The notes beneath the pieces are model-generated. The model worked only from the letters and a program-made list of their open reading frames with translations, did no database searches and had not been told where the DNA came from. Of a stretch of DNA of 64,000 nucleotides, positions 52,401 through 55,400 are shown piece after piece. Made by a program: the position numbers and the translations under genes. This DNA is from Eledone cirrhosa (Eukaryota), in assembly GCA_964016885.1 (NCBI GenBank), contig OZ024758.1:6262001-6326000 (forward strand). Reading direction: 5' to 3'. The number at the start of each line of letters is the position of its first letter. The stretch's first letter is position 1.

Positions 52401-55400
52401 ATATATATATATATATATTTCGTTTCTGAATTTGTTTAGCAAGATTCTTTATCTGAAATCGTGTGTTGAAACCGATATTGTTATACTTTGGGAGGGTCAT
52501 GTTGCCAATAAGAAACACACGCACCAGTTGCTTTCACTTCAATTTAATTTATTAAATATTTATAAATTTACAAATTTATAAATTTCTGGTTGGTTGGTTG
52601 GTTCCACAACCAGATAGTTGTTTATATATATATAGTCATAGTTCTTTCGTCACACACTCTGTGACCTCTTCAGTGACTGGGGATTTCTTTCTTCGTTTCT
52701 GTGCCTTTCCTTTCTTCTATCCTACGCCATTTTGTTTGTGTGTGCACAAACAAAATGGCGTAGGATAGAAGAAAGGAAAGGCACAGAAACGAAGAAAGAA
52801 ATCCCCAGTCACTGAAGAGGTCACAGAGTGTGTGACGAAAGAACTATGACTATATATATATAAACAACTATCTGGTTGTGGAACCAACCAACCAACCAGA
52901 AATTTATAAATTTGTAAATTTATAAATATTTAATAAATTAAATTGAAGTGAAAGCAACTGGTGCGTGTGTTTCTTATTGGCAACATGACCCTCCCAAAGT
53001 ATAACAATATATATATATATATATATATATATATATATATATATGTATATATATATATATACATACATATATATATATAAGTATATATATATATATATAT
53101 ATATATATATATATATATATATATATATATACATACATACATATATGTATAAGTATATATATATATATATATATATATATATATATATATATATATATAT
53201 ACATACATATATATATATATATTTATATCAAATATTATGCAAGCAAACAGATCAAAAATATATTGTTCTCTCTGCTATTTAATATTTGTATTTTCACTCT
53301 ATCACTCTCTCTCTCTCCCTCTCCTTCCCCCTCTCTCTCTCTCTATATATATATATACAAATATATATATATCTATCTATATATATATATATATATATAT
53401 ATATATATATATATATATATACATATATATATATACATATATATATATATATATATACATATATATATATACATATATATATATATATATATATATATAT
53501 ATATATATATATATATATATATACAAATATATATATATATACAAATATATATATATATATATATATATATATATATATATATATATATATATATATACAT
53601 ACAAACATACAAAGATTGGTGAGATGGTGCTCACGAATACATCATGGACTGATAACTGGACAACTATATAATGACTAAGTTGAGGAACAATCTGTCTAGA
53701 CAATATGAATAGCAGAAATATTCCCAACTTTGTTATCTCTGTTAGTTTGATAGGTGTATAGAGCAATAAATAATAAACGACAACACAATATCAGCGTGTA
53801 CTCATAAACGTACAGGCACACGCATATATATCTATCTATATATATATATATATATATATATATATATATATATATATATATATATATATATGTGTGTGTG
53901 TGTGTGTGTGTGTGTGTGTGTGTGTGTGTGTGCGTGTGTATCCATATATATATATATATAAATACTTATATATATATATATATAGGAACGAGTAGGACCC
54001 CGAAGGCTGAGCTCAAACCGTTTCGACGGCTAATTCTGGACGGAATTAGCCGTCCAAACGGCTTGAGCTCAGCCGTCGGGGTCTTACTCGTTCCTATTAC
54101 CCACTCTACTACCCTAAGTATTGAGTACTTTGGTGCGTTATGGTCCACCTGGTTCCTTACCACATTTCCTTTGTTATATATATATATATATATATATATA
54201 TATATATATATACATGCATACATACGTACATACACACACATACATATATGTGTGCATATATACGTACATACACACTCACACACATATATACATGCATACA
54301 TACATACATATATATATATATATATATATATATATATATATATATATATATATATATATATATATATATATATATATATATATATATATATATATATATA
54401 TGTATATATATGTACACACATATATATATATATATATAAATATATACATATATATGTATATATATATATATACATATATATATGTATATATAAATACAAC
54501 TAGCACCACCTCCACTGAGACTACCATGACTACTTCTCTATATATACAAAATTCCATTTTTCCAGTCTCCTTCTCAACAAGAAAGATGAAAAAACTTACC
54601 TCAACACTTGATTTTAAATCTTTAATTTTTCATTTTTAATTCTTATTAATTCTTTTTAATTGTAATACTCAACATTTGGTAAGATGGATTTTACTAATAC
54701 ATCGAAACCGGAAATACTTTATATACTTTATATACTTTATAAAACTCTTTTTTAAAAGAATTGTCCCTCTCATTTTTTCAATAATGTCACTTTGACGAAA
54801 GGAAAAAAAAGTAAAACAGATCCTTAAATATATTTCCAATTTCACCTTCTCTCTCTCTCTTTCTCTCTCTCTCTCTCTGTATATATATATATATATATAT
54901 ATATATATATATATATATATATATATATATATATATATATATATATATATATATATATTTCTCTCTTTCTCTTTCTCTATCCCTCTCTCTGTCTCTCTCT
55001 CTCTCTCTCTCTCTCTCTCTCTCTCTCTCTCTCTCTCTGTATATATATATATATATATATATTTATATACACACTTATGTATATACTTATATATGTACAC
55101 ACACACACGCACACATTTATATATATATTTAATATAGAAGTTGCTTCTACAGGACTACAACTATTTCATTCGGGAGAAATCATCAGGAAAGCCGGGCTTT
55201 CCTGATGATTTCTCCTGAATGAAACAGTTCTAGTCCCGTAGAAGCCATTTCTATATTAAATATTTATACTCTGCTATGTATTGAGTACCTTACTTATTGT
55301 GGTTACCCTCGATTGAACCCAGGACGAGAGAGAAGGAGAGGGAGAGAGAGAGAGATGGAGGGAGAAAGAGAGAGAGAGAGAGAGAGAGAGAGAGAGAGAG

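Follow-up and report, generated by a model that had tools for sequence, protein, structure and literature searches.

A perfect palindrome in a predicted CLC intron of the octopus Eledone cirrhosa, probably a young head-to-head insertion of an autonomous Penelope-like element

A stretch of 64,000 nt from the 3.0-Gb genome of Eledone cirrhosa (contig OZ024758.1, positions 6,262,001 to 6,326,000, hereafter the window) contains a long palindrome set in TA repeats, with a hammerhead ribozyme motif on each strand. A reading of the sequence alone had proposed that it is a very young, non-autonomous and retrozyme-like insertion related to Penelope-like elements (PLEs), and that its antisense arm could mask the sense ribozyme in the pre-mRNA of a CLC gene. 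The question raised by this locus is what kind of element left it, and how two matching arms came to lie head to head with a tail at one end only.

The palindrome and its parent element

The palindrome itself was borne out, as a repeat finder and an exact script agreed on arms at 52475-52740 and 52745-53010 that are complementary at 266 of 266 positions (Table 1). The four bases between them, previously described as a loop, are present as TGTG; they are not a true loop, however, being native bases -244 to -241 of the longer arm, where element positions are counted from the ATG of the parent ORF. The tail is 60 nt long and its last five letters blend into the TA run. One of two further copies of the tail claimed for the window was recovered at 38233-38291 (83% over 59 nt), whereas the other, at about 39163, is weaker and gapped and was not reported by blastn. 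A second related short family lies in (TA)n at 39150-39260 of the window and in stretches L038, L040, L055, L083, L099 and L153; it differs in sequence upstream of the ATG region, and its ends lie near +67 to +72. Since both flanks of the palindrome are (TA)n, a target-site duplication is unreadable.

Table 1. Features of the palindrome and of the predicted host intron (window coordinates; element positions relative to the parent ATG).
Feature	Position	Strand	Remarks
Long arm, 5'-truncated PLE end with tail	52415..52744	-	Element -244 to +86; blastn to tandem copy L031/L032
Short arm, inverted 5'-truncated PLE end, no tail	52745..53010	+	Element -240 to +26
Unpaired tail (part of parent ORF start)	52415..52474	-	Element +27 to +86; AATAT at the (TA)n end
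Loop TGTG and head-to-head joint within CA tract	52741..52744		Exact joint once in genome
Parent ORF start, ATG at 52985	52985..53010	+	Mirrored ATG at 52500, minus strand
(TA)n-rich target flank, right	53011..53223		Matching left run at about 52355-52414
Putative YY1-like motif AAAATGGCG	52752..52760	+	Element -233 to -225; mirrored at 52725-52733; just downstream of the putative start region
Minimal type I hammerhead motif	52807..52851	+	Element -178 to -134; predicted cut after 52846
Mirror hammerhead motif, sense in CLC pre-mRNA	52634..52678	-	Predicted cut after 52639
CLC exon downstream of host intron	48683..48858	-	PF00654, E=1e-13
Likely CLC exon upstream of host intron (EEKYTLAW...SATSVA)	56676..56756	-	Splice signals and frame; no Pfam match

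A check of the genome for a parent element encoding both RT and GIY-YIG domains found an intact PLE of 4,423 bp, reached through three hammerhead copies spaced 4,423 bp apart on contig C1. The units at G000:C1:63.067-63.076 Mb are in tandem, the organisation that gives pLTRs, and two of them differ at one of 4,423 bases. The window copy has three mismatches to the intact parent (327 of 330 nt identical), and the proposal of a very young PLE insertion, one that carries a minimal hammerhead and whose pLTR is both truncated and inverted, was thus upheld. Judged by its sequence, the palindrome is a dead-end, doubly 5'-truncated product of an autonomous family.

The parent carries one ORF of 1,318 amino acids (P0001), with RT followed by a C-terminal GIY-YIG domain, and the peptide at its start is nearly the same as that encoded by the tail arm in the window. 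The RT motif YVDD lies at residue 943 and a GIY-YIG-type core (VVY..YIGET) at 1213-1235. A CxxC linker, with C-x4-C-x2-C at 1192-1200, is invariant in 119 aligned proteins, and a CCHH arrangement is formed by two Cys in the core and two His downstream. P0001 alone gave no Pfam match, a PDB sequence search with it was uninformative, and a profile search reached no further than weak bacterial RT matches at the YxDD region. Since P0001 has no Pfam match of its own, the domain call rests on these motifs and on homologs, 11 of which were aligned, with RVT_1 found in six and GIY-YIG in three. The closest of 165 homologs is a hypothetical protein of Octopus vulgaris (70% identity), a species for which recently active Penelope families have been listed (PMC13282606), and the family is also present in contigs from four runs of further organisms' sequence data.

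Two features of the protein were observed in passing. The spacing between RT3 and RT4 in relatives of P0001 is about 134 amino acids (131-140 in 96 proteins; residues 768-904 of P0001, L031:5653-9609), and RT motif 4 of the parent reads GAAIG; the long stretch may be an IFD-like insert in a lineage with C-terminal endonuclease. Residues 246-440 (L031) form an in-frame insert that is 40% Asn, and N-rich inserts are known from rotifer Penelope ORFs (Arkhipova et al. 2013, PMC3846280).

Hammerhead motifs and the host gene

A minimal type I hammerhead on each strand was confirmed at the positions first proposed (Table 1), and no third motif of this kind turned up when the window was scanned from end to end, on both strands, under relaxed minimal-hammerhead criteria. 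Each consists of a 5-bp stem I (AGUCA/UGACU), CUGAAGA, one extra G, a 6-bp stem II, GAAA, G-AA-C and UA, and so has what defines PLE minimal hammerheads: the CUGAnGA/GAAA/UH core, an extra nucleotide at 9/10.1, a G10.1-C11.1 pair, a helix I of 4-5 bp and a long helix II. The Rfam check went the other way, with no hammerhead at gathering score in the window and none at E<=10 in 52300-53100; miRNA matches to Rfam in the latter segment were dismissed as generic and driven by the hairpin shape. A palindromic loop 3 for dimer pairing is absent from the motif, where G15.2 and C16.2 pair and leave a loop of AA; the self-duplex of AGAACU was computed at +1.4 kcal/mol.

Exact copies of the 45-nt hammerhead number 3,842 in the genome (1,932 + 1,910), against none for a control. 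Conservation was examined in 40 related arms chosen without use of the hammerhead. Change amounted to 0-6% in the core, stem II and the 5' side of stem I, 13% in loop II, 16% in a flanking purine stretch and 58% at H17, where A and U are both allowed. Variation within the motif thus fell mostly in loop II, at H17 and in the outer pair of stem I, and no compensatory change was seen among these arms. The pattern suggests constraint acting in the parent element.

At this locus the two motifs lie on opposite strands, so that within one transcript they cannot pair with each other. The sequence-only reading had held that the antisense arm, transcribed first in the CLC pre-mRNA, could mask the sense ribozyme. 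The energetics agree, with -476.7 kcal/mol computed for the hairpin against -10.7 kcal/mol for the hammerhead fold; the specificity to CLC does not hold, since an antisense arm comes first on either strand. Masking is also probably unnecessary, because single PLE minimal hammerheads gave no cleavage in vitro (Cervera and De la Pena 2014, PMC4209133) and the hammerhead of an anole PLE required its protein (Frangieh et al. 2024, PMC11167929). Masking is therefore a by-product, real in principle on either strand, and the hammerheads would be pLTR passengers, likely inactive here.

The placement of the palindrome within a CLC intron is well supported as a prediction. PF00654 was matched by ORFs at 48679-48858 and 44657-44977, both on the minus strand, and not by the two upstream exons. 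A phase-0 GT..AG intron of 7.8 kb is predicted at 48859-56675 on the same strand; the likely exon upstream of it ends in SATSVA, and the palindrome lies about 3.6 kb from either splice site. Other repeats occur in the window. Tandem arrays at 5576-6363, 18324-19055 and 47832-48689 have units of 31, 61 and 115 nt, and the 115-nt array adjoins the downstream CLC exon. Three related fragments at 51650-51920, 59750-60180 and 62700-63060 presumably stem from the 3' end of an RTE-type LINE. Family D18, likely a SINE of about 190 nt, is dispersed in several copies over 2616-47903, for instance at 32287-32478.

The hairpin in CLC pre-mRNA is likely a by-product of the insertion and an ADAR substrate, and editing of the palindrome is plausible by comparison with other animals: an exceptional burden of dsRNA together with hyper-editing is described for octopus, and the repeat that is massively edited in lizard is Penelope (PMC5625713).

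Formation of the head-to-head insertions

How such insertions arise was approached through sister copies. Of the hammerhead matches on C1, the first 100 listed were taken with their surroundings (74 stretches once neighbours had been merged), and 60 loci were added from two end patterns. The resulting sample, which includes the window, comprises 68 distinct head-to-head pairs and 80 unpaired arms; drawn from the start of one contig and from exact patterns, it favours young copies. A pair with a one-sided tail was present in 45 of the 74 hammerhead-picked stretches. A +26 end is combined with a +86 end in 66 of the 68 pairs (p=3e-20); the remaining two were called 26/91 and 20/86, and none of the 68 is an adjacent pair of the same type. 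Four apparent 26/26 cases under a loose test were rejected, three as mutated +86 arms and one as a non-adjacent neighbour. Both end points read AATAT directly before CG in the element, and (AT)n lies on both sides of 58 of the 68 pairs. Exact ends running into TA number 13,325 at +26 and 11,079 at +86 genome-wide (about 24,400 in total), with 439 read-throughs of +86.

In our view the palindrome probably goes back to a recent, 5'-truncated insertion by an autonomous PLE, with two ends placed head to head in a TA microsatellite after both nicked strands had primed RT on element RNA. The GIY-YIG domain would nick both strands of (TA)n, and the RNA would offer two AUAU sites, at +26 and +86, so that each ...ATAT-3' end could anneal to one of them and prime a cDNA. 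Both cDNAs would be extended in the direction of the cap, on a sense RNA left uncleaved, and would then be joined, sometimes with templated filler (as putatively in L033, L098 and L103). Where both reached the 5' end of the RNA, the product would be an almost perfect palindrome, about 540 bp in length and with 60 nt of tail on one side, as in the window. Such a scheme agrees with in vitro work on the anole PLE protein (PMC11167929): both strands were cleaved and extended, synthesis began at two internal positions on either side of the tail, the RNA used was uncleaved, and the protein is predicted to form a dimer. Against the scheme count one non-adjacent 26/26 arrangement (L060) and the joint of the window, which is even (G|C), a rare kind, and lacks the extra G; the anole start sites, too, were reported to have no homology to the cut DNA, unlike the AUAU pairing proposed here. 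A tail hairpin that would join both AUAU sites was considered and is unsupported by MFE folds of four windows.

Several observations on joints and ends stand by themselves. The joints of L098, L033 and L103 contain short reiterated copies of adjacent sequence (three 14-nt repeats in L098), which suggests repeated RT priming or joining of the polymerase-theta type. The same bipartite insertion with an identical joint occurs at L035:3125-3540 and 5736-6150, 2.6 kb apart; both copies are among the 68 pairs, and a local duplication is the likely cause. At G000:C1:132947037-132947570 a 46-bp tandem array of at least 12 copies derives from the +86 region of the element.

The main rival, provided that unequal arms come from later deletion, is self-priming or fold-back, in which one cDNA snaps back and is copied and an endonuclease resolves the end at +26. 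It has precedent, since self-priming on an antisense template has been proposed for PLEs (Arkhipova et al. 2013, PMC3846280) and the tail has been ascribed to endonuclease-mediated resolution (Craig et al. 2021, PMC8557442), an account that also names the origin of PLE inverted repeats as an open question. Arm lengths bear on it directly. Arms range from tens of bases to more than 3 kb, and the longer arm, by more than 50 nt, is the +26 arm in 24 of the 68 pairs and the +86 arm in 19. For the former class, which includes near-identical arms (one difference in L071), a single fold-back from +86 is excluded, unless, as the rival would have it, the arms became unequal through later deletions in unstable palindromes. 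On the other side, fold-back is favoured by a surplus of equal truncation points: among the 17 pairs in which both arms pass -260, six have truncation points no more than 15 nt apart, where permutation predicts 0.58, although two of the six have uncertain joints. Arms are also more alike within loci than between them, with a median of 1 against 4.5 differences over 150 nt. Of 41 pairs, 11 have the own partner as the strictly closest arm, 15 show a tie and in another 15 the partner is farther than some other arm, so that as a test for a shared template of the two arms the comparison is modest.

The 5' ends of the arms provided a further line of evidence. Ends fall in -250 to -220 in 38 of 136 arms, about ten times the density of neighbouring bins, and at the ribozyme cut (-145 to -130; cut predicted at -139/-138) in one of 136; a whole hammerhead had been required on at least one arm in half the sample, a bias against short arms that cannot have produced the peak. 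Among the matches listed (100 of 2,659), C or G never takes the place of the native A that precedes the cut site. At 76 loci the joint falls within the CA tract, as it does in the window. Of the 50 such joints listed, 48 are of the odd T-C-A type by hand count, a type to which independent truncation would assign half of the joints at most. The native base at -234 is C; among the matches listed (100 of 161), hand counts gave G in 74 and T in 26, and adjacent arm pairs are G/G in 10 of 11 (hand count). Of 26 contexts checked at this position (17 G, 9 T), at least two resemble internal variants rather than truncations, and the opposite arm fails to explain 13 of the 17 G. Three motifs are placed along the element around this region: those at -280 and -271, which we take to be ETS-like and NRF1-like, lie upstream, and that at -233, presumably YY1-like, directly follows the putative start region. 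In human promoters, NRF1 sites precede the start and YY1 sites follow closely after it (PMC11269187), and a 5' G on full-length L1 has been taken as a sign of capping (PMC2831318). From these ends we infer that the template is a capped sense RNA that starts near -250 to -230 and is uncut by its hammerhead; against the capping part, an untemplated base can be added by RT without a cap.

Fold-back does not readily account for 5' ends that cluster at a promoter-like region of the sense strand, nor for G/G joints with 0-1 nt separating the arms. Since 66 of 68 pairs are of the +26/+86 type, either arm can be the longer and 5' ends accumulate at about -240, often behind an extra G, rather than at the ribozyme cut, the sequence evidence favours double priming on a capped, uncut sense RNA, and fold-back appears unlikely.

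A third explanation, that a non-autonomous, retrozyme-like palindrome spreads as a unit, its hairpin selected to regulate the ribozyme or the CLC transcript, is very improbable and largely refuted. The 76 loci joined in one CA tract would suit it, as would the low rate of change in the hammerhead core and stems relative to the flanking purine stretch, which selection in the autonomous parent explains as well. Joints nevertheless vary between loci and that of the window is unique, arm lengths are continuous up to kilobases, tandem hammerhead units are lacking, and the putative promoter motifs at -280 to -262 are absent from the window copy; the non-autonomous, retrozyme-like part of the sequence-only reading accordingly did not stand. 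An assembly or library fold-back artefact, for which zero mismatches between the arms and the failure of any of four contig sets covering pieces of the locus to span it might speak, is just as hard to credit, since an artefact would mirror at an arbitrary point and take in flank, whereas here the mirror stops exactly at the +26/+86 ends of the family and the two flanks are different, a pattern shared by 66 of 68 sister pairs, and many sister insertions have unequal or diverged arms.

A wider proposal goes beyond double priming at this locus, and we hold it only tentatively, with doubt slightly outweighing belief. More than ten thousand insertions would then document the way in which Penelope elements integrate. 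A dimeric RT-endonuclease would use a single sense RNA, capped and not cleaved by its ribozyme, prime both (TA)n strands on its two AUAU sites, which are spaced by 60 nt, and join the cDNAs; the family would also seed thousands of perfect intronic hairpins for the A-to-I hyper-editing of octopus; and its RT might belong to an unnamed PLE lineage with a fingers insert. If true, the long-known head-to-head palindromes with a one-sided tail would be explained without antisense self-priming. The locus itself is real, young and ordinary, one of thousands of such PLE stubs, and the family outweighs it: its young, abundant and intact copies give precise predictions for a published in vitro assay, namely two start sites, the strand assignment, the start of transcription and the lack of a ribozyme cut in the template. 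The family is also a candidate source of the near-perfect dsRNA load and hyper-editing of octopus (PMC5625713). In the literature searched, which was mostly open-access and lay outside Repbase, neither twin or double priming for PLE inverted repeats nor this octopus family was found.

Comparison with known systems

The inverted layout, the one-sided tail and the type of hammerhead are already published. Animal non-LTR retrozymes (bioRxiv 10.64898/2026.07.22.740005) are likewise non-coding and carry a type I hammerhead related to PLE pLTRs; they are described as head-to-tail tandem units with a hammerhead in each, whereas the window holds a single head-to-head insertion, and membership was rejected on its one hammerhead per strand and unique joint. 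Minimal hammerheads of metazoan PLEs (Cervera and De la Pena 2014, PMC4209133) already include opposite-strand pairs 100-700 bp apart and the extra nucleotide. The AA loop 3 of the window motif is non-palindromic, unlike the hammerheads of that account, and 3,842 identical copies compare with 97/130 given there for D. virilis.

Among PLE clades, Neptune and Nematis (PMC8557442) share with P0001, at the level of motifs, the C-terminal GIY-YIG domain, the CCHH and the CX2-5CxxC linker, and the short linker spacing of P0001 resembles that of Nematis by eye. The RT3-RT4 stretch in relatives of P0001 is about 70 amino acids longer than in the canonical PLE rows of Fig. S1 of that article, again by eye. 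The Hydra clade (<3 kb, no CCHH, CxCX5C, DKT) was rejected for the parent, which is 4.4 kb long with CCHH present and DKS, as was the Naiad clade (N-terminal endonuclease, no canonical hammerhead), since here the endonuclease is C-terminal and a hammerhead is present.

Poseidon of Anolis carolinensis (Frangieh et al. 2024, PMC11167929) likewise has an AT-rich target, and hammerhead cleavage is dispensable for its insertion. Its hammerhead overlaps the ORF start, whereas that of the window family lies 134-178 nt upstream of the ATG. Its start sites are called non-homologous to the cut DNA, in contrast to the ends of the window family, which share AUAU with (TA)n, and the CxxC linker present in P0001 is absent from Poseidon as that source describes it.

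The closest likeness is to the published insertions of EN+ PLEs (Arkhipova et al. 2013, PMC3846280; Craig et al. 2021, PMC8557442), which have the same head-to-head inverted 5'-truncated copy with a tail at one end, the same pLTR and tail into the first ORF codons, partial tandems, AT-rich or (TA)n targets and an Asn-rich insert in the ORF. As these accounts describe them, their tails measure 30-40 nt, compared with 60 nt in the window family; the window insertion differs also in that both arms are reduced to pLTR, and its family is far commoner, at about 24,400 exact ends. Where the 2013 study proposed self-priming on an antisense template, the copy statistics of the window family favour double priming on sense RNA.
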